DNA of 6,007 nucleotides from a virus. Its lineage: Duplodnaviria > Heunggongvirae > Uroviricota > Caudoviricetes. How positions within the stretch are numbered: position 1 is the first letter of the stretch; each line of letters opens with the position of its first letter. The notes under the pieces were generated by a model. That model worked only from the letters and a program-made list of their open reading frames with translations, did not search any database and was not told where the DNA came from. The stretch spans positions 1 to 6,007 of IMG/VR virus record IMGVR_UViG_2778261536_000003. The stretch is one strand, 5' to 3'. Positions 1 to 6,007 of this stretch are shown here, one piece after another. The position numbers and the translations under genes are program-made.

Positions 1-47
1 ACCCTTAATCCGCCGCCCCATGTGTTTGTTGTGATCCGTTGCTGGCC

Positions 48-707
48 TTAACCAAACGTCTCTTCAGGCCACTGGCTAGCGATAACTTTCCCTACAACGG
101 AACAGCTATCATTGCATGGGATCATTGGATATTGCGGGTTTAGTGGCTGTAGGAACACCTGACCGCTATCCCTGATCAGTTTCTTGAAGGTAAACTCGTC
201 ACCACCAAGTCTGGCTATGCAGAAATCACCTGGCTCAACAGCCTGCTCAGGGTCAACGAGAATTAACACCCCGTCAGGAAAGCTTGGCTTGGAGCCTGTT
301 GGTGCGGTCATGGAATTACCTTCAACTTCAAGCCAGAACGCACAATCACTGGCTTTTTTGGTTGTGCTGACCCATCTCTCCGCATCACCTTTGGTAAAGG
401 TTCTAAGCTCAGGCGAGAACATCCCGGCCTGAACATGAGAAAAAACAGGGTACTCATATTGTTTTTTTACGGGGGCAGATGAGTATTCGCCAACAGGTGA
501 AAATGTACCGTCGTGGTTGAATGAGACGTTATCAATACCAAGGTATTTAAACACCACACCAATCTCGTCAAGAGATGGATGACGAGATCCGCGCAACCAG
601 TGACCAATTCCACCCTGCGTCATACCAAGCTCTTCAGCTAACTTCTCTTGAGTTATGCCGAGCTCTTTCATTCTGGATCTAGCCAGTTCATACCATTTCA
701 TTTTCAT
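48..707 (-). CDS. cI: CI-type prophage repressor: XRE-family HTH N-terminal domain (non-lambda specificity) fused to a lambda-cI-like C-terminal oligomerisation/autocleavage domain
   Basis: Six-frame ORF 48..749 (-). The C-terminal ~140 aa (from [29 protein letters not shown] to WPEETFG) matches lambda cI as I recall it almost residue for residue, including the Ala-Gly cleavage site in VQAGMF and the Ser (EGNSMTAP) and Lys (TFKKLIRD) of the LexA/S24-type catalytic dyad. The N-terminal ~95 aa ([23 protein letters not shown]) does not match lambda. Start is uncertain: ATG at 707 (MKMKWYEL...) sits 7 nt downstream of a minus-strand TAATAA (720..715), consistent with a leaderless PRM-like transcript; the next ATG at 701 has AAGGG 7 nt upstream; ATG 743 and TTG 749 lack an RBS. 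Confidence 0.88.
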
Positions 708-818
708 ACCCTTATTATTACGCTCTGTACTAAAACCATCCATGCACAAGATGTATTTTTTGTTTGCATTCTAAAAGTACATATCGTATTATTGTTTCAT
801 GGTTACTATGGAGGGCAT
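708..818. promoter_or_regulatory. Divergent cI/cro operator-promoter region (OR-like); candidate PR and PRM
   Basis: AT-rich ~110 bp gap between divergent cI and cro. Rightward candidate promoter: TTGCAT (764..769), 17 bp spacer, TATTAT (787..792), about 27 bp upstream of the cro ATG. Leftward candidate -10 TAATAA (720..715, minus strand) abutting the cI ATG at 707, with a weak -35. Short symmetric or mirror elements (gtactaaaa 727..735 / taaaagtac 772..780; atgca 742..746 / tgcat 765..769; ACAAG..TTGT 746..763) could be operator half-sites, but I cannot define three operators confidently. Confidence 0.5.
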
Positions 819-1034
819 ATGAGCAACCTACGAAAATATCGAGAGTCACTGAATATCTCTCAAACAACACTTGCTAAGGCAGTTGGATGCACACAGGGAG
901 CTATCGGACATTGGGAATCTGGTCGTCGCTTCCCAGACCTTAAAACATGCCGTGCTCTTGTTGAGTGCCTAAACAAGTTAGGCGCAAAAGTCAGTCTTGA
1001 TGACGTGTTCCCGCCGGAACACAAAGCCGCTTAA
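819..1034 (+). CDS. cro: Cro-like repressor (71 aa, XRE-family HTH)
   Basis: In-frame ATG at 819 inside track ORF 648..1034, preceded by GGAGGG (810..815). Position divergent from cI. HTH ISQTTLAKAVGCTQGAIGHW shares the recognition motif TQG-IGHW with the adjacent cI (TQGGIGHW), as expected for two proteins reading the same operators. Not lambda Cro-like in sequence. Confidence 0.85.
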   Translation: MSNLRKYRESLNISQTTLAKAVGCTQGAIGHWESGRRFPDLKTCRALVECLNKLGAKVSLDDVFPPEHKAA

Positions 1035-1042
1035 GACATTCT

Positions 1043-1074
1043 AGCTCTTACACATCACAGCCCTGAAAAAGGGC
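1043..1074 (+). promoter_or_regulatory. nutR-like N-utilisation site: boxA-like AGCTCTTA plus boxB hairpin GCCCTGAAAAAGGGC
   Basis: boxB at 1060..1074 (gccctgaaaaagggc) is a perfect 5-bp stem GCCCT/AGGGC with a GAAAA loop, the same as lambda nutR boxB as I recall it. boxA-like agctctta at 1043..1050 lies 9 nt upstream, the same spacing as lambda. Located just downstream of the cro stop, as in lambda. Confidence 0.8.
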
Positions 1075-1150
1075 ATTACCAGAAACAAATCTCTATGGTT
1101 TTGCGTTTCTTTGCGAAGCCAACTCTATCTAATCATTAAGGAAATTATCT

Positions 1151-1432
1151 ATGGGTACTATTGCAACTAAAAGCAAGAAAGCGGCTCGCATCGAGTCAGC
1201 CTTGCTGAACAAACTGGCACTGATGGGGCAGAAGACATTCGCTCGAGCAATGGGGGTTCCTGAATATCAGGTAAGCCGATGGAAGAATGGTTTCTTCTCG
1301 CAGGTAAGCATGATGCTGGCTGTTCTGGAATACGGAATCGAAGACGATGAAATGGCTGAGCTGACTAAGCGGCTTGCCAATTACCTGACAAAAGAAAAAG
1401 CCCCGAAGAACGGCGAATTCTTCGAGGCCTGA
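1151..1432 (+). CDS. cII: CII-like transcriptional activator (lysogeny establishment)
   Basis: 93 aa ORF with RBS AAGGA (1138..1142). Clear similarity to lambda CII in the core (RIESALLNK / SRWK / SMMLAVLEYGIEDDEMA versus lambda EALRIESALLNK / SRWKRDWIPKFSMLLAVLEWGVVDDDMA). Position between cro and O. Confidence 0.85.
   Translation: MGTIATKSKKAARIESALLNKLALMGQKTFARAMGVPEYQVSRWKNGFFSQVSMMLAVLEYGIEDDEMAELTKRLANYLTKEKAPKNGEFFEA
1163..1176 (-). promoter_or_regulatory. Candidate CII binding site (TTGC-N6-TTGC) of a leftward PRE-like promoter
   Basis: Plus strand gcaactaaaagcaa equals minus strand TTGCTTTTAGTTGC, the CII recognition repeat TTGC-N6-TTGC. It lies in the first codons of cII on the opposite strand, the same place as lambda PRE, and is oriented to transcribe toward cro/cI. 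Confidence 0.6.
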
Positions 1433-1466
1433 TGTAGAAAGACTGGATCAATCCACAGGAGTCATT

Positions 1467-2312
1467 ATGACAAATACAGCAAAAATACTCAACTTCGGCA
1501 GAGGTAACTTTGCCGAACAGGAGCGAAGAGTGGCTGATATCGATGATGGTTACACCAGATTCGCTAACGAGCTGCTGGAAGCTATCGCAAGTGCCGATTT
1601 AACCGCTCGCCAGTTGAAAGTTATGCTGGCCTACGTCCGGAAAACATATGGATTCAATAAGAAAACAGATCGAATAGCCGATGAGCAAATTTCTCAGTTA
1701 ACAGGACTGTCAAGGCAGAATGTTAACAAGGCTAAAAAAGAACTGATTTCAATGAATTGCCTGTTTATGGATGGAAATCAAATCGGTGTAAACAGGGAGG
1801 TATCTGCGTGGCAATTCAGCAAGTGTCTCCAAGTTAGCAACTTTGTCTCGAAGTTAGAGACAAAAAATGTCTCCAAATTAGAGACACTCAATGTCTCGAA
1901 GTTAGAGACACACAAAAGACATTCTTTAAAGACAAAAGAAAATATTAATAAACCCCCTATATCCCCCAAAAAAGTTTCTCAGAAGTTCGACCCGCTAGAA
2001 ACAGAGTTGCCTGATTGGTTATCAGCAGAAACATGGTTGTCGTGGGTTACCTATCGCAAGGAGATAGGTAAGTCGATCAAGTCTAAGCAAAGTGTCACTC
2101 AGGCTATCAACGTTCTAAGCAGAAGTCTGGAGAAGGGATATACACCTGAAGAAATTATAAACCAGAGCATCGCCAGTGGTTGGCAGGGGATTTTTGAACC
2201 CAAGACTCCAAAGGGGAAATCTCAACCGAGGCCGCAGCAGCGAGCTATGCAGGAAAACTTTACCGCCAAAGATTACGGGCAAACTGAAATGCCTTCATGG
2301 GCGCAGGAGTGA
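1467..2312 (+). CDS. O: Replication initiator O (lambda O-like N-terminal origin-binding domain; divergent C-terminal domain)
   Basis: 281 aa ORF with RBS AGGAG. N-terminus MTNTAKILNFGRGNFAEQERRVADIDDGY is very close to lambda O (MTNTAKILNFGRGNFAGQERNVADLDDGY as recalled). The gene contains the iteron array and AT-rich tract typical of ori-lambda. The C-terminal ~110 aa does not resemble the lambda O P-binding domain as I recall it. Confidence 0.9.
   Translation: MTNTAKILNFGRGNFAEQERRVADIDDGYTRFANELLEAIASADLTARQLKVMLAYVRKTYGFNKKTDRIADEQISQLTGLSRQNVNKAKKELISMNCLFMDGNQIGVNREVSAWQFSKCLQVSNFVSKLETKNVSKLETLNVSKLETHKRHSLKTKENINKPPISPKKVSQKFDPLETELPDWLSAETWLSWVTYRKEIGKSIKSKQSVTQAINVLSRSLEKGYTPEEIINQSIASGWQGIFEPKTPKGKSQPRPQQRAMQENFTAKDYGQTEMPSWAQE
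1824..1910. repeat. Origin iterons: four ~19-bp dyad-symmetric repeats (TGTCTC-N7-GAGACA) at 20-24 bp spacing inside O
   Basis: Seen directly: 1824..1842 tgtctccaagttagcaact (degenerate), 1844..1862 tgtctcgaagttagagaca, 1868..1886 tgtctccaaattagagaca, 1892..1910 tgtctcgaagttagagaca. They encode the repeated peptide VSKLET in the O linker. Same architecture as ori-lambda, but the iteron sequence differs from the lambda iteron. Confidence 0.85.
1911..1975. other. AT-rich DNA-unwinding region of the replication origin
   Basis: Immediately 3' of the iterons: cacaaaagacattctttaaagacaaaagaaaatattaataaaccccctatatcccccaaaaaag. A-tracts and low GC match the AT-rich unwinding element of lambdoid origins. 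Confidence 0.65.
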
Positions 2313-2314
2313 AT

Positions 2315-3208
2315 ATGAATACGACAAATGGTTACAATCTGGCACTGCAAAGGCAACTTGTAGACTCAAAAATCAATGACATTTCTGATCTGAAACAGAA
2401 ACTTGAGTTTAGCAAAATTGGATCAGCATCAGATGGAATGTCAGTTACCAGCACAGTGGAAGAGTGCGAGAAACACGGTAAATATACTTCCTATGAGAAA
2501 TATCTGACCATCTCAGGAAAAAGAATTACTTCAAGTAAATCTGAGTGCCCACAGTGCCTTGAGGAGAAAATTCGTAAGAAAGAGATTGAACGTGAGCAGG
2601 CAGAACAAAGAGCAAGACAATCAAAAATTGAATATTTGTTGAATTCTCTCAATATTCCAGAGAGGTTCAAAAATTGCACTCTTCAGAATTATGAGCCTGT
2701 TAACGATGATGCAAAGCGAGTTCTTAAGGTATGCCAGGCATATGCCAGTAAGTGGCCTGAACGCCTTCAAAAAGGTGGCGGACTGGTCATGTGTGGTAAG
2801 CCTGGAACTGGAAAGAACCACCTTGCACTGGCTATCGCTAGGCACGCCATTATCGAGCATCAAAGCTCTGTGATATTTACCACTGCGTTGAAAATTGCCA
2901 GAGAGTACAAATCAACATGGTCTAAGGCCGCAACCAGAACTGAAGAAGAAGTCATTAGGCAATTTACGCATCCTGACTTGTTAATAATCGATGAGGTTGG
3001 CGTGCAGTTCGGCAGTGATGCTGAAAAGCTAATCATGTTCGAAATTATCAACACCAGATATGAATACATGAAGCCAACAATCCTGATTAGTAATCAGAGC
3101 AAAGATGAACTGTCTGCATTCATTGGTGAGCGTGTTATTGACAGGATGAATGATGGCGGCGGGTGCACTCTTGCGTTTACATGGGATAGTTACAGGAGCA
3201 GATCGTGA
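2315..3208 (+). CDS. DnaC-type AAA+ helicase loader (phage replication protein replacing lambda P)
   Basis: ATG at 2315 with AGGAG (2305..2309), 2 nt after the O stop. The C-terminal domain closely resembles E. coli DnaC as I recall it: Walker A GKPGTGKNHLALAIA, Walker B DLLIIDEVG, and C-terminal WDSYRSRS. The N-terminal ~120 aa is distinct, with C-x2-H ... C-x2-C (CEKHG...CPQC) and a charged coiled-coil-like stretch (EEKIRKKEIEREQAEQRARQSK). Confidence 0.9.
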   Translation: MNTTNGYNLALQRQLVDSKINDISDLKQKLEFSKIGSASDGMSVTSTVEECEKHGKYTSYEKYLTISGKRITSSKSECPQCLEEKIRKKEIEREQAEQRARQSKIEYLLNSLNIPERFKNCTLQNYEPVNDDAKRVLKVCQAYASKWPERLQKGGGLVMCGKPGTGKNHLALAIARHAIIEHQSSVIFTTALKIAREYKSTWSKAATRTEEEVIRQFTHPDLLIIDEVGVQFGSDAEKLIMFEIINTRYEYMKPTILISNQSKDELSAFIGERVIDRMNDGGGCTLAFTWDSYRSRS

Positions 3209-3495
3209 CTGGAAAAGAAATCATCCTGGAATATCTGAAAACTCATGAACAATTCTCCCCACATGAATTAGCACTGATCACAGGAATACCAAATAACAGA
3301 ATCGCTCAAGCAGCAAGGCATATGGTGAAACAAGGGCATTTGAGTGTTGTTGAGCGTAAGTGGAAGACGGTTATTTATGCAAAACGCAAAGTGAAGAAGG
3401 AGCCAATTAAAAGAAATCCAGATGGTACTGGGTGGGGATGTGCAAATCCAATGACGGCGTTTATTAATAGGGCGCTTATGGAGGTAAGGCAATGA
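3205..3495 (+). CDS. Small basic protein with predicted winged-HTH DNA-binding fold, function unknown
   Basis: 96 aa ORF with GTG start overlapping the loader stop (GTGA) and AGGAG at 3194..3198. Motif SPHELALITGIPNNRIAQAARHMVKQGHL looks like a wHTH followed by a Lys/Arg-rich tail. Sits between the replication genes and tR2, where lambda has ren. I do not recognise it as a named family. Confidence 0.55.
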   Translation: MTGKEIILEYLKTHEQFSPHELALITGIPNNRIAQAARHMVKQGHLSVVERKWKTVIYAKRKVKKEPIKRNPDGTGWGCANPMTAFINRALMEVRQ

Positions 3496-3520
3496 CCATC
3501 TACATCACTGAGCTAATAAC

Positions 3521-3552
3521 AGGCCTGCTGGTAATCGCAGGCCTTTTTATTT
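3521..3552 (+). terminator. Intrinsic terminator (tR2-like)
   Basis: Perfect 8-bp stem aggcctgc (3521..3528) / gcaggcct (3537..3544), 8-nt loop tggtaatc, followed by ttttattt. Sequence and position (just before ninB) match lambda tR2 as I recall it. Confidence 0.85.
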
Positions 3553-3568
3553 GGGGGAGAGGGAAGTC

Positions 3569-4009
3569 ATGAAAAAACTAACCTTTGAAATTCGATCTCC
3601 GGCACATCAGCAAAACGCTATTCACGCGGTACAGCAAATTCTTCCAGACCCAACCAAACCAATCGTAGTAACCATTCAGGAACGCAACCGCAGCTTAGAC
3701 CAGAATCGAAAGCTTTGGGCTTGCCTTGGTGACGTCTCTCGTCAGGTTGAATGGCATGGTCGCTGGCTGGATGCAGAAAGCTGGAAGTGTGTGTTTACCG
3801 CAGCATTAAAGCAGCAGGATGTTGTTCCTAACCTTGCCGGGAATGGCTTTGTGGTAATAGGCCAGTCAACCAGCAGGATGCGTGTAGGCGAATTTGCGGA
3901 GCTATTAGAGCTTATACAGGCATTCGGTACAGAGCGTGGCGTTAAGTGGTCAGACGAAGCGAGACTGGCTCTGGAGTGGAAAGCGAGATGGGGAGACAGG
4001 GCGGCATGA
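3569..4009 (+). CDS. ninB: NinB (Orf) recombination mediator
   Basis: 146 aa from the ATG at 3569 (track ORF 3551.. starts at an upstream TTG). Sequence [31 protein letters not shown]... appears essentially identical to lambda NinB as recalled. G-rich RBS gggggagaggg upstream. Confidence 0.92.
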
Positions 4010-4188
4010 GACGACAGCGACGAAGTATCACCGACATCATCTGCGAAAACTGCAAATACCTTCCAACGAAACGCTCCAGAAATAAACGCAAGCCAATCCC
4101 AAAAGAATCTGACGTAAAAACCTTCAATTACACGGCTCACCTGTGGGATATCCGGTGGCTTAGAGAACGTGCGAGGCATACAAGGTGA
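4006..4188 (+). CDS. ninE: NinE (60 aa)
   Basis: ATG at 4006 overlaps the ninB stop (ATGA). The 60-aa product [30 protein letters not shown]... matches lambda NinE (orf60) as recalled. Track ORF 3946..4188 is an upstream extension of the same frame. Confidence 0.85.
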
Positions 4189-4355
4189 TTGACCCAAATC
4201 GAAGTTATGAACAAGAAAGCGTCGAGCGAGCTTTAACGTGCGCTAACTGCGGTCAGAAGCTGCATGTGCTGGAAGTTCACGTGTGCTCCGATTGCTGCGC
4301 AGAGCTGATGAGCGATCCGAATAGCTCAATGTACGAGGAAGAAGACGATGAATGA
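4185..4355 (+). CDS. ninF: NinF (56 aa, Cys-rich putative zinc-binding protein); not present in the supplied ORF track
   Basis: GTG at 4185 overlaps the ninE stop (GTGA), with GAGG 8 nt upstream. My translation is [56 protein letters not shown], stop at 4353..4355. It resembles lambda NinF (orf56) as recalled and has CxxC ... CxxCC. It fills an otherwise unexplained gap in a translationally coupled operon. Confidence 0.7.
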
Positions 4356-5070
4356 GTTAATAAATGGCAATGCCATCAAAATGACAAGCATTGAAATCGC
4401 TGAGTTGGTGGGTAAGCGTCATGACAATGTGAAACGTACCATCGAAACGCTGGCTAAAAATGGTGTTATCCGGCTTCCTCAAATTGAGGTTTCCGAAAGA
4501 ATCAATAACTTAGGGTTCAATGTTCAGTACGAGCATTACGTCTTCGAGGGCGAACAAGGTAAGCGAGATAGTATTGTTGTTGTTGCCCAGTTGTCGCCAG
4601 AGTTCACCGCTCGCCTTGTTGACCGCTGGCGAGAGCTTGAAGAAGCTGCGGTTAATATCCCCAAAACGCTACCGGAAGCGTTGCGCCTTGCTGCTGACCT
4701 TGCTGAGCAGAAAATGCAACTGGAAAACCAGCTCGCAATTGCCGCACCTAAAGTTGAGTTTGCCGATCGAGTTGGCGAGGCCAGTGGAATTTTGATTGGA
4801 AACTTTGCAAAGGTTGTTGGTATTGGTCCAAACAAACTGTTTGCGTGGATGCGCGATCACAAAATCCTTATTGCTTCAGGTGCCCGGCGCAATGTGCCAA
4901 TGCAGGAATATATGGAGCGCGGCTATTTCACAGTGAAAGAAACAGCAGTCAATACAAATCACGGAATACAGATATCGTTCACCACAAAAATCACCGGGCG
5001 TGGTCAACAGTGGCTGACCAGAAAGCTGCTCGATAACGGAATGCTGAAAGTAACAGGGGAGGCTGCTTAA
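4348..5070 (+). CDS. Phage regulatory protein with Rha-like N-terminal domain and KilA-C/ANT (antirepressor-type) C-terminal domain
   Basis: 240 aa ORF with RBS GAGGA, start overlapping the ninF stop. N-terminus (NAIKMTSIEIAELVGKRHDNVKRTIETL) looks like the phage Rha DNA-binding domain; C-terminus (APKVEFADRVGEASGILIGNFAKVVGIGPNKLFAWMRDHKILIASG) looks like the ANT/KilAC domain. Family assignment is from memory of the domain signatures, not from a search. Confidence 0.78.
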   Translation: MNELINGNAIKMTSIEIAELVGKRHDNVKRTIETLAKNGVIRLPQIEVSERINNLGFNVQYEHYVFEGEQGKRDSIVVVAQLSPEFTARLVDRWRELEEAAVNIPKTLPEALRLAADLAEQKMQLENQLAIAAPKVEFADRVGEASGILIGNFAKVVGIGPNKLFAWMRDHKILIASGARRNVPMQEYMERGYFTVKETAVNTNHGIQISFTTKITGRGQQWLTRKLLDNGMLKVTGEAA

Positions 5071-5360
5071 TGGCTAACCTACGCAAAGAAGCGCGCGGCA
5101 GAGAATGCCAGGTACGTATTTACGGCGTATGCAATGGCAACCCTGAAACTACAGTTCTGGCACATTACCGGATGGCTGGAATTTGCGGAACGGGAATGAA
5201 GCCTGACGACCTGATCGGTGCATGGGCTTGTAGTGACTGCCACGCGGAGATCGACCGACGCACAAGGATTCTCGACAACAAAGACGCCAGACTTTACCAC
5301 CTCGAAGGCGTGATCAGGACGCAGGCGGTATTGCTGAAGGAGGGGAAGATTAAGCCATGA
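5070..5360 (+). CDS. ybcO: YbcO-like DUF1364 protein (putative Zn-dependent nuclease)
   Basis: 96 aa; start overlaps the upstream stop (TAATG). MANLRKEARGRECQVRIYGVCNGNPETTVLAH...CSDCHAEIDRRT resembles E. coli DLP12 YbcO as recalled, with conserved Cys/His. Lies immediately upstream of rusA, as in DLP12. Confidence 0.8.
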   Translation: MANLRKEARGRECQVRIYGVCNGNPETTVLAHYRMAGICGTGMKPDDLIGAWACSDCHAEIDRRTRILDNKDARLYHLEGVIRTQAVLLKEGKIKP

Positions 5361-5719
5361 ACGAATATCAGTTTGTGCTTCCATACCCGCCGTCGGTGAA
5401 TACCTACTGGCGAAGACGGGGAAGCCAATACTACATCAGCGATAAAGGCCAGAAATACCGAAAAGACGTTCAGCAAATCATCCGCCAACTTAAGTTAGAC
5501 ATTTTCACCAAATCACGACTCCGCATCAAAGTCATCGCAGACGTTCCAGACTCCCGCCGCCGCGACCTCGATAACATCCTGAAAGGTTTACTCGACTCCC
5601 TTATCCACGCCGGATTTGCGGAAGACGACGAGCAATTCGATGACATTCGCGTAATTCGTGGTGTGAAAGTACCAGGCGGACGGCTTGGAATAAAAATCAC
5701 CGAACTGGAGAACGTATGA
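5357..5719 (+). CDS. rusA: RusA Holliday-junction resolvase
   Basis: 120 aa; start overlaps the ybcO stop (ATGA). Similar to E. coli RusA as recalled ([15 protein letters not shown] versus [34 protein letters not shown] versus [31 protein letters not shown] versus GGRLELTITEM). Confidence 0.9.
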   Translation: [120 protein letters not shown]

Positions 5720-5904
5720 ACGCCACAATTCAAACGATACCAGAGCTTCTTATCCAGACACGAGGCAATCAGACCGAAGTGGCGAGGATGCTTTCCTGCG
5801 CAAGAGGAACAGTGCTCAAGTACAACCGAGACAGCAAAGGCGAGCGTCACGTAATAGTTAACGGCGTCCTGATGGTCAAACAGGGCAAGAGGGGAAGACC
5901 ATGA
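5716..5904 (+). CDS. ninH: NinH-like small DNA-binding protein
   Basis: 62 aa; start overlaps the rusA stop (ATGA). TIPELLIQTRGNQTEVARMLSCARGTVLKYNRDSKGERHVIVNGVLMV resembles lambda NinH (TIPDMLVEAYGNQTEVARRLKCSRGTVRKYVDDKDGKMHAIVNDVLMV as recalled). Confidence 0.85.
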   Translation: MNATIQTIPELLIQTRGNQTEVARMLSCARGTVLKYNRDSKGERHVIVNGVLMVKQGKRGRP

Positions 5905-6007
5905 GACTCGAAAGCGTAGCTAAATTTCACTCGCCAAAAAGCCCGATGATGAGCGACTCACCACGGGCCACGGCTTCTGACTCTCTTTCCGGTACTGATG
6001 TGATGGC
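5901..6007 (+). CDS. Q: Late-gene antiterminator Q, lambda type (5' partial; continues beyond the window)
   Basis: ATG at 5901 overlaps the ninH stop (ATGA). The translated N-terminus MRLESVAKFHSPKSPMMSDSPRATASDSLSGTDVM appears identical to lambda Q as recalled. Runs off the right edge. Confidence 0.9.
   Translation, partial: MRLESVAKFHSPKSPMMSDSPRATASDSLSGTDVM

Follow-up and report, generated by a model that had tools for sequence, protein, structure and literature searches.

The window that we analyzed, a stretch of 6,007 nucleotides (nt) comprising positions 1 to 6,007 of the IMG/VR record IMGVR_UViG_2778261536_000003, is recognizable from its gene content as the immunity, replication, and nin region of a lambdoid Escherichia coli prophage, close relatives of which are held in many E. 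coli chromosomes. Between the last replication gene of the window and ninB lies a gene for a protein of 96 amino acids, which gene an earlier note on this DNA had linked to lambda ren by its position only. The comparisons described below identify the product as a relative of the lambda Ren protein with a different C-terminal tail. The features of this gene and of its surroundings are the following, all on the plus strand:

3205..3495, plus strand: the ren-like gene (96 amino acids, GTG start, TGA stop), from the list of open reading frames (ORFs), the sequence, and the homology to Ren.
3205..3384, plus strand, residues 1-60: the Ren-type winged helix-turn-helix (wHTH) domain, from the AlphaFold2 model and hhalign.
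3385..3447, plus strand, residues 61-81: the K/R-rich linker RKVKKEPIKRNPDGTGWGCAN, predicted to be disordered.
3433..3489, plus strand, residues 77-95: the tail motif of type B, WGCANPMTAFINRALMEVR, from the match to the tail of PHROG 1687, with a predicted helix at residues 82-95.
3194-3198, plus strand: the Shine-Dalgarno sequence AGGAG, 6 nt before the GTG and within the loader coding sequence.
3205..3208, plus strand: the start/stop overlap GTGA, formed by the ren-like GTG (3205-3207) and the loader TGA (3206-3208).
2297..3208, plus strand: the DnaC/IstB-type helicase loader (NCBIfam DnaC 2.6e-48, Pfam IstB_IS21 1.3e-18, PHROG 50 9e-86).
3521..3552, plus strand: the intrinsic terminator equivalent to lambda tR2, a hairpin at 3521-3544 followed by a T-run, from a terminator scan and RNA folding.
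3569..4009, plus strand: ninB, the downstream neighbor (Pfam NinB 2e-54).

The earlier note had described a basic protein at these coordinates, coupled to the loader by the GTGA overlap and encoded directly upstream of tR2, and in all these respects its description held. The ORF was confirmed, and its product has an isoelectric point (pI) of 10.1, with 17 lysine plus arginine residues against 8 aspartate plus glutamate; the GTG start, the AGGAG, and the 4-nt overlap recur without exception in the 31 loci that bear the window allele; and the hairpin with its T-run was the sole terminator-like site that the scan returned within 2900-3800. From the stop codon through the hairpin and into ninB, the window is identical, bar one base, to the ren-ninB spacer of lambda, which spacer carries tR2. 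The ren-like gene was shown to be co-transcribed with the replication genes, the transcript being that of the early rightward operon, which would carry it together with cro, cII, the O-type gene, and the loader gene and would leave it as the last gene just before tR2. Since the ren-like start overlaps the loader stop, ribosomes that terminate on the loader can re-initiate on the ren-like GTG, and that coupling would tie the synthesis of the ren-like protein, in both time and amount, to that of the replication proteins.

The gene ren has been named in lambda since 1980, and we know of no mechanism and of no solved structure for its product. That the N-terminal domain of the window protein is homologous to lambda Ren is nearly certain. 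In a direct BLASTP comparison with lambda Ren (J02459 40280-40570), the identity was 43% over residues 1-58; and a tblastn search of 50,697 phage records (2.3 Gb) matched the ren genes of lambda, 21, 933W, SfI, and many Stx phages, the matches to annotated ren genes having 37-47% identity over residues 1-58 or 1-71 at E values of about 1e-7 (3e-7 for the homology to lambda Ren). The profile of PHROG 142, named "Ren-like exclusion protein," covered residues 1-66 with an E value of 3.5e-13, and hhalign against 26 diverse Ren proteins aligned residues 1-64 with a probability of 99.4% and an E value of 2e-21, the homologous domain being that of lambda Ren residues 1-64, of the pattern MTGKEAI..YL.TH..F....VA..TG....I.QAA..M...G.L......W.TV.Y. 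Reciprocally, lambda Ren matched at 1.5e-10 the profile of PHROG 1687, the family that, as will be seen, shares the tail of the window protein. The link to ren is thus one of homology and not, as the earlier note had it, of position only. The statement in that note that the family was unrecognized stands to the extent that no curated Pfam or NCBIfam model names the protein, but falls before the PHROG 142 and hhalign matches. Pfam, NCBIfam, and PADLOC gave no significant family for either the window protein or lambda Ren, NCBIfam returning nothing useful and Pfam a MarR_2 match of 17.8 bits (E 0.0037), which score is under the cut-off of 27 bits. Because no Pfam or NCBIfam model for Ren exists, the public records label the window allele "hypothetical protein" or "MarR family." A word-indexed search with the single protein found near-identical copies only, the family being reached through an alignment that included lambda Ren and Klebsiella Ren.

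The winged helix-turn-helix that the earlier note had predicted was borne out by AlphaFold2, which modeled it at residues 1-60 with helices at 3-13, 19-26, and 30-42 and a hairpin at 46-52/55-60, the block means of the predicted local distance difference test (pLDDT) being 84-91. In the AlphaFold2 model of a lambda-type Ren (P0062), the elements of the winged helix have their boundaries at the same residues. The pLDDT dropped below 50 for residues 64-71 and 74-83 of the linker, and the C-terminal helix at 82-95 was predicted at low confidence only. Whereas the profile searches that the note had suggested led to the Ren family, its suggested structure search yielded as nearest Protein Data Bank (PDB) folds only generic small wHTH proteins, with no solved Ren structure among the matches; likewise, a sequence search of the PDB with the window protein gave nothing even at an E value of 10.

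Those nearest solved structures—ArsR, MarR, AspA, and TFE-type DNA binders—raise the alternative that the window protein might regulate transcription as a sequence-specific protein of the MarR/ArsR type, repressing or activating phage or host promoters. The winged-helix fold itself, the sub-threshold Pfam MarR_2 match, the basic wing and linker of the protein, and the MarR label carried by PHROG 1687 and by some RefSeq records would all accord with such a role, and the relatives with two or three tandem wHTH repeats suggest multivalent DNA binding. The MarR_2 score is nonetheless below the Pfam cut-off, the labels stem from automatic annotation and not from tested function, and the AlphaFold2 model lacks the N- and C-terminal dimerization helices that define the MarR proteins (PF12802/PF01047), which are of about 140-150 amino acids, whereas the wHTH of the window protein starts at residue 3 and is followed by one low-confidence helix. 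The residues of the recognition helix that are conserved in the family, moreover, are small or hydrophobic (I33, A37) and not of the base-contacting kind, and no promoter-like site was found within 2900-3800, operators not having been searched for. Being below the Pfam threshold and without the dimerization helices, the window protein is not a member of the MarR family. With the MarR/ArsR-type proteins and the small wHTH DNA binders AspA of pNOB8, SSV1 F-112, and Stf76 it has the winged-helix fold in common at an identity of only 11-24%, AspA having in addition the same succession of a wHTH and a C-terminal helix; but this fold is very common, and the resemblance is functionally uninformative. 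We therefore regard a role as a transcription regulator as improbable. Whether the window protein would bind nucleic acids directly is a separate question, on which we hold the chances to be evenly balanced.

The homology to Ren ends near residue 64, and the linker that follows could not be aligned by hhalign with that of canonical Ren. Canonical Ren proteins finish with the motif IFxECRxSxAMKRVLxVYG, in which C79, S82, R87, and L89 are invariant across the 26 diverse members and which holds four of the five family-invariant columns. A hidden Markov model (HMM) of this canonical tail gave no hit on residues 61-96 of the window protein, the result being no better than that with 500 shuffles; by eye, all that the two tails could be made to share was Cys79 and a loose A-hydrophobic-x-R-x-L pattern. 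The window protein has as its C-terminus WGCANPMTAFINRALMEVRQ, and its best family match was PHROG 1687 (E 6.2e-40, 137.8 bits), in two stretches that comprised profile positions 1-66 and the tail, positions of about 67-114 being absent; the isolated tail (residues 59-96) aligned with positions 115-150 at an E value of 7.1e-11. In the proteins of the PHROG 1687 type the tail motif reads [FW]G[CAGL]AN[PQH][LM]TAFINx[AR]L[RKM]EVR. A degenerate DNA search for this tail in viral contigs brought up about 40 further distinct proteins, most of them of about 150 amino acids with two winged-helix repeats and some of 220-240 amino acids with three. A two-repeat protein of 151 amino acids (P0215) matched PHROG 1687 from end to end (positions 1-150, 3e-55) and PHROG 142 at 6e-12, and three-repeat forms such as P0185 matched PHROG 19053 as well. 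The DNA pattern served better in viral contigs than a protein search with the tail alone, which found three proteins only; in genome contigs the matches to the pattern were mostly due to chance, with 5 true ones out of 29. Still other family members end in a third motif. We thus distinguish the tail types A (ECRxSxAMKRVLxVYG), B (GCANPLTAFINxALREVR), and C (ECRxNWxGYxIHKIFG).

From these comparisons the window protein can be classed as a single-repeat member of a Ren superfamily, composed of a Ren-type N-terminal wHTH and the B tail of PHROG 1687. It has in common with PHROG 1687, to which the "MarR family transcription regulator" label is attached, the C-terminal B-tail motif and the slot after the replication genes, with overlaps of -4 or -1 and a confinement to the Enterobacterales; it differs by having one wHTH where those proteins, of about 150 amino acids in a profile of 162 positions, have two or three, and by a linker that is longer by about 11 residues. 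We found no experimental study of any PHROG 1687 member. Compared with canonical Ren, the wHTH of the window protein scores 52-53 bits at 43-47% identity, as against 42 bits at about 40% over 48 residues with the first repeat of the B clade; its nearer kinship is thus with canonical Ren, and the protein therefore looks like a chimera. The possibility that the B tail is a frameshifted A tail was discarded: its sole support was an 8-nt match, GCAAA[G/T]CC, in different frames, which is too short and lacks statistical support. The superfamily is small, with 143 cluster representatives out of 1.84 billion at an E value of at most 1e-3, and its hosts, as judged from named sources and species-representative genomes, belong to the Enterobacterales: Escherichia, Klebsiella, Citrobacter, Enterobacter, Salmonella, Pluralibacter, and Ca. 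Erwinia.

Variation within these tails was observed at two levels. Codon 77 (3433..3435), with which the B tail opens two codons ahead of Cys79, specifies W in the window and Y, C, or V in near-identical copies. Among the canonical Ren proteins, the extreme C-termini (loci L039..L088) vary in blocks beyond KRVL, as in ...AVYGVKR, ...RVYKRTSMGTQ, ...MVWGKNLL, and ...MFWGRVGV; it may be that lambdoid phages recombine repeatedly at the 3' end of ren.

Among 5,426 complete E. coli genomes, 99 carried the ren-like allele, with an identity of 95-99.7%, and the phages N7 (MH717096) and mEpX1 (PV340543) encode a protein that is 99% identical and annotated as "hypothetical protein." In 34 copies, representing 15 distinct alleles, we counted 16 synonymous against 11 non-synonymous changes, which corresponds to a ratio of non-synonymous to synonymous polymorphism (pN/pS) of about 0.19, and 17 of those 27 changes fall on third codon positions of the ren-like plus frame. 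The sequence comparisons thus indicate a real gene under purifying selection and not a chance ORF, which latter is dismissed because the start and the overlap are kept in all 31 loci and the pN/pS is so low. An ORF of 74 codons on the minus strand (3268..3492) was likewise rejected as a real gene, since both the third-position bias and the homology are those of the plus strand. That the gene would be non-functional, as a decaying remnant or as a chance ORF, might be argued from its GTG start codon, from the copies that in some genomes (P0005, P0008, P0009, and hit H85) are truncated or disrupted by an insertion sequence (IS), and from the O111 strains, which hold the gene only at the edge of a prophage remnant; but the ORF is full-length, with start and overlap conserved as stated, the substitution pattern is that of the ren-like frame, homologues exist across the Enterobacterales, and viable phages, N7 and mEpX1, carry the gene, so that we can give this view scarcely any credit.

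With regard to the defective copies, the N-terminus in those E. coli examples (P0005, P0008, P0009, and H85) is either exchanged for the unrelated sequence MLPSEIMIWQPEFTDK... or truncated, and in the O111 strains (L007 2199..3500) the gene lies where a prophage remnant breaks off, next to an IS3 element; in the prophage state the gene appears to be dispensable. The O111 loci, in which no loader is adjacent, were considered as an alternative context for the gene and rejected, these being truncated prophage remnants adjacent to the IS3 element or to a rearrangement. A contig of 9.7 kb from a metagenome-assembled genome (MAG) labeled Cellvibrionaceae (JAUVQU010000080.1; L201) encodes a protein whose displayed C-terminal 70 residues are identical to those of the window allele, and it is most likely E. 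coli prophage DNA that was mis-binned into that MAG.

The slot between the loader and tR2, whose survey across lambdoid prophages the earlier note had envisaged, was then considered over the family as a whole: in 80 of the 81 surveyed Ren-family loci the gene overlapped the upstream replication gene by 4 nt, with GTGA in the window type and ATGA in the lambda type. Canonical Ren was found after lambda P, but also after a DnaC-type loader that is 70% identical to that of the window (Klebsiella phage 6) and after DnaB-type helicases (Enterobacter phage BHUENT3, Klebsiella phage RCIP0114). The B-tail proteins, for their part, follow DnaC-, DnaB-, and P-type genes, mostly with overlaps of -4 or -1, in modules whose initiator is either of the O type or unrelated to O; the single-repeat B form was found after DnaC-type loaders only, in two lineages whose proteins are about 69% identical. 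Since P-, DnaC-, and DnaB-type genes all precede family members, the slot belongs with the end of that module and not with one loader family; and a correspondence between the type of tail and the type of loader was ruled out, with A and B tails both occurring after all three types. Both loader lineages share one identical stretch (about 3075..3552 in the window and 3371..3848 in L009), which takes in the last 130 nt or so of the loader gene, the ren-like gene, and tR2, and the end of the loader thus travels with ren as one mosaic block; a second mosaic joint is located exactly at the ren stop codon, the DNA beyond being identical to that of lambda.

This arrangement bears on another alternative, namely, that the protein is a replication accessory without any anti-defense role, modulating the complex of the initiator, the loader, and DnaB or else the origin—for example, in helicase release or in the switch from theta to rolling-circle replication—in which circumstance the protection of lambda from Rex would be a side effect of altered replication intermediates. 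The constant position of the gene at the 3' end of replication modules and its coupling to the last gene there, whatever the type of loader or helicase, speak for such a role, as does the common displacement of the loader end and ren as a mosaic block; furthermore, it is in O and P that the suppressors of lambda ren mutants map, and a role in replication has been proposed by Thomason et al. (bioRxiv 10.1101/2021.04.19.439022, supplement). Neither the canonical nor the B tail tracks the loader type, however, and this independence argues against a loader-specific contact. In addition, lambda Ren is needed neither for replication nor for P-lethality or replicative killing (PMC3640518), and it is not essential for plaque formation (PMC10695390). 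We consider a purely accessory function in replication rather unlikely, though less so than that of a transcription regulator.

Our preferred reading takes lambda Ren as its model. The two proteins are alike in having 96 amino acids (the Ren family being of about 96-100), an N-terminus MTGKE, and a basic character (pI 9.9 in lambda Ren, 10.1 in the window protein); in their homologous winged-helix domains, with identical boundaries of the predicted secondary structure; and in the position of their genes after the last replication gene, with a 4-nt overlap and followed by tR2 and ninB. They differ in that the canonical C-terminal motif is replaced in the window by WGCANPMTAFINRALMEVR after a longer basic linker, in that the gene upstream is P in lambda and a DnaC-type loader gene in the window, and in that the start is ATG in lambda and GTG in the window. 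The mutants of lambda in ren are excluded by Rex+ lysogens and are suppressed by mutations in O and P, while in a bacterial two-hybrid assay Ren gave signals with RexA and RexB and none with P (Thomason et al., 2021; bioRxiv 10.1101/2021.04.19.439022, supplement); a RexB-Ren match was recorded in a yeast two-hybrid study as well (PMC3224144). The Rex-protection phenotype and the two-hybrid signals belong to the lambda protein, to which the window protein is likened by sequence. By analogy, a small adaptor is the role that we would assign to the window protein: it would keep the replication phase of the phage safe from exclusion—that is, abortive infection—by resident prophages or other defenses; its winged helix and basic linker would hold it on the DNA or on the replication complex, while its C-terminal helix would contact a partner, the tail type (A, B, or C) setting which partner that would be.

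That the function is tied to the replication module we hold to be quite probable; that this function would be anti-exclusion is a more tentative proposal, to which, by analogy with lambda, we give somewhat less than an even chance. Taken as a whole, the reading that we favor, and to which we lend moderate confidence, is that of a single-repeat variant of the Ren superfamily made together with the replication proteins and probably guarding phage replication from exclusion. Several observations weigh against it. The canonical C-terminal motif of Ren is undetectable in the window protein, both by hhalign, whose alignment reached residue 64, and with the tail HMM; the window protein may fail to bind the partner of that motif, whatever the latter is. 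The yeast RexB-Ren match came from one vector pair, and Ren scored there with Ea8.5, H, Orf35, and Orf63 also (PMC3224144). In a close prophage relative, that of E. coli PE15, the neighbors of cI are HicAB and a YoaK-like gene and not RexAB; and, finally, lambda forms plaques in the laboratory without Ren (PMC10695390; PMC3640518). A narrower version, in which the protein would be the antidote to the RexAB of its own prophage, was ruled out for this lineage by that same content of the rex slot in the PE15 relative.

The match to Ren, which goes part of the way toward the refutation that the earlier note had envisaged, connects the protein with a family that has a Rex-protection phenotype, but, as the mechanism of Ren is not established and the canonical C-terminal motif is absent here, the description of the protein as uncharacterized in the earlier note remains fair at the mechanistic level. 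The gene that follows the DnaC-type loaders in about 2% of the complete E. coli genomes, as yet recorded as "hypothetical" or "MarR family," is a Ren relative, and its annotation is hereby corrected. What lies in the window is the expected type of gene in the expected place, its value residing in the corrected annotation and in the picture of a Ren family with a conserved winged-helix head and swappable tails, whose role we argue to be tied to the whole replication module and not to lambda P. With mEpX1 and N7, both culturable, tail variants from nature are at hand for deciding whether the Ren proteins serve in anti-exclusion, as replication accessories, or as DNA-binding regulators, so that the mechanism of Ren becomes more accessible to test.

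A broader interpretation, which we offer as a speculation more likely to be wrong than right, is that Ren, rather than being peculiar to lambda, would constitute one branch of a modular superfamily whose genes, in the lambdoid phages of the Enterobacterales, are translationally coupled to the last gene of replication modules of every type: O plus P, O plus DnaC, O-like plus DnaB, and a non-O initiator plus DnaB. Its members would have from one to three Ren-type winged helices joined to one of at least three interchangeable tails, and the tail would decide which exclusion or defense system, or which host factor, is neutralized. If this interpretation were true, nature would have joined an A-type wHTH to a B tail in the window protein, and this chimera would be a ready tool for dissecting the Ren proteins.

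The remainder of the window comprises the following features:

48..~707, minus strand: a LexA-like cI.
819..1034: cro, listed with the early rightward operon.
1151..1432: cII (Pfam Phage_CII 8e-30).
1467..2312: an O-type initiator (Phage_rep_O 6e-36), with iterons inside the gene.
3' of ninB, in order: ninE, ninF, a KilAC/Roi-type gene, a DUF1364 gene, rusA, and ninH.

The iterons within the O-type gene (1844..1915) are three in number, with a spacing of 24 nt, the sequence TGTCTC(G/C)AA(G/A)TTAGAGACA, and an internal palindrome in each, a weaker fourth copy being present upstream at 1821-1837; they presumably are the replication origin. Between the ren-like gene and ninB lies a plus-strand ORF for a hydrophobic peptide of 26 amino acids (3492..3572), the ATG of which overlaps the ren-like stop codon (ATGA) and the TGA of which overlaps the ATG of ninB (ATGA at 3569). 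The tR2 hairpin is contained within this ORF, and the lambda version is identical bar one base; the ORF could encode a translated coupling peptide or could be a mere by-product of the GC hairpin and T-run.

The gap between tR2 and ninB, for its part, contains no insert in the window and differing small inserts in its relatives: an ORF of 54 codons for a membrane-protein-like product in mEpX1 (L002 4406..4570), a hypothetical protein of 68 amino acids in E. coli PE15 (L194 8131..8337), and two ORFs in the O111 remnant (L007 3864..4450). In the PE15 prophage, the position of rexA-rexB downstream of cI (L194 3054..4443) is occupied by a gene for a small membrane protein of the YoaK family, a HicA/HicB toxin-antitoxin pair, and a hypothetical gene.

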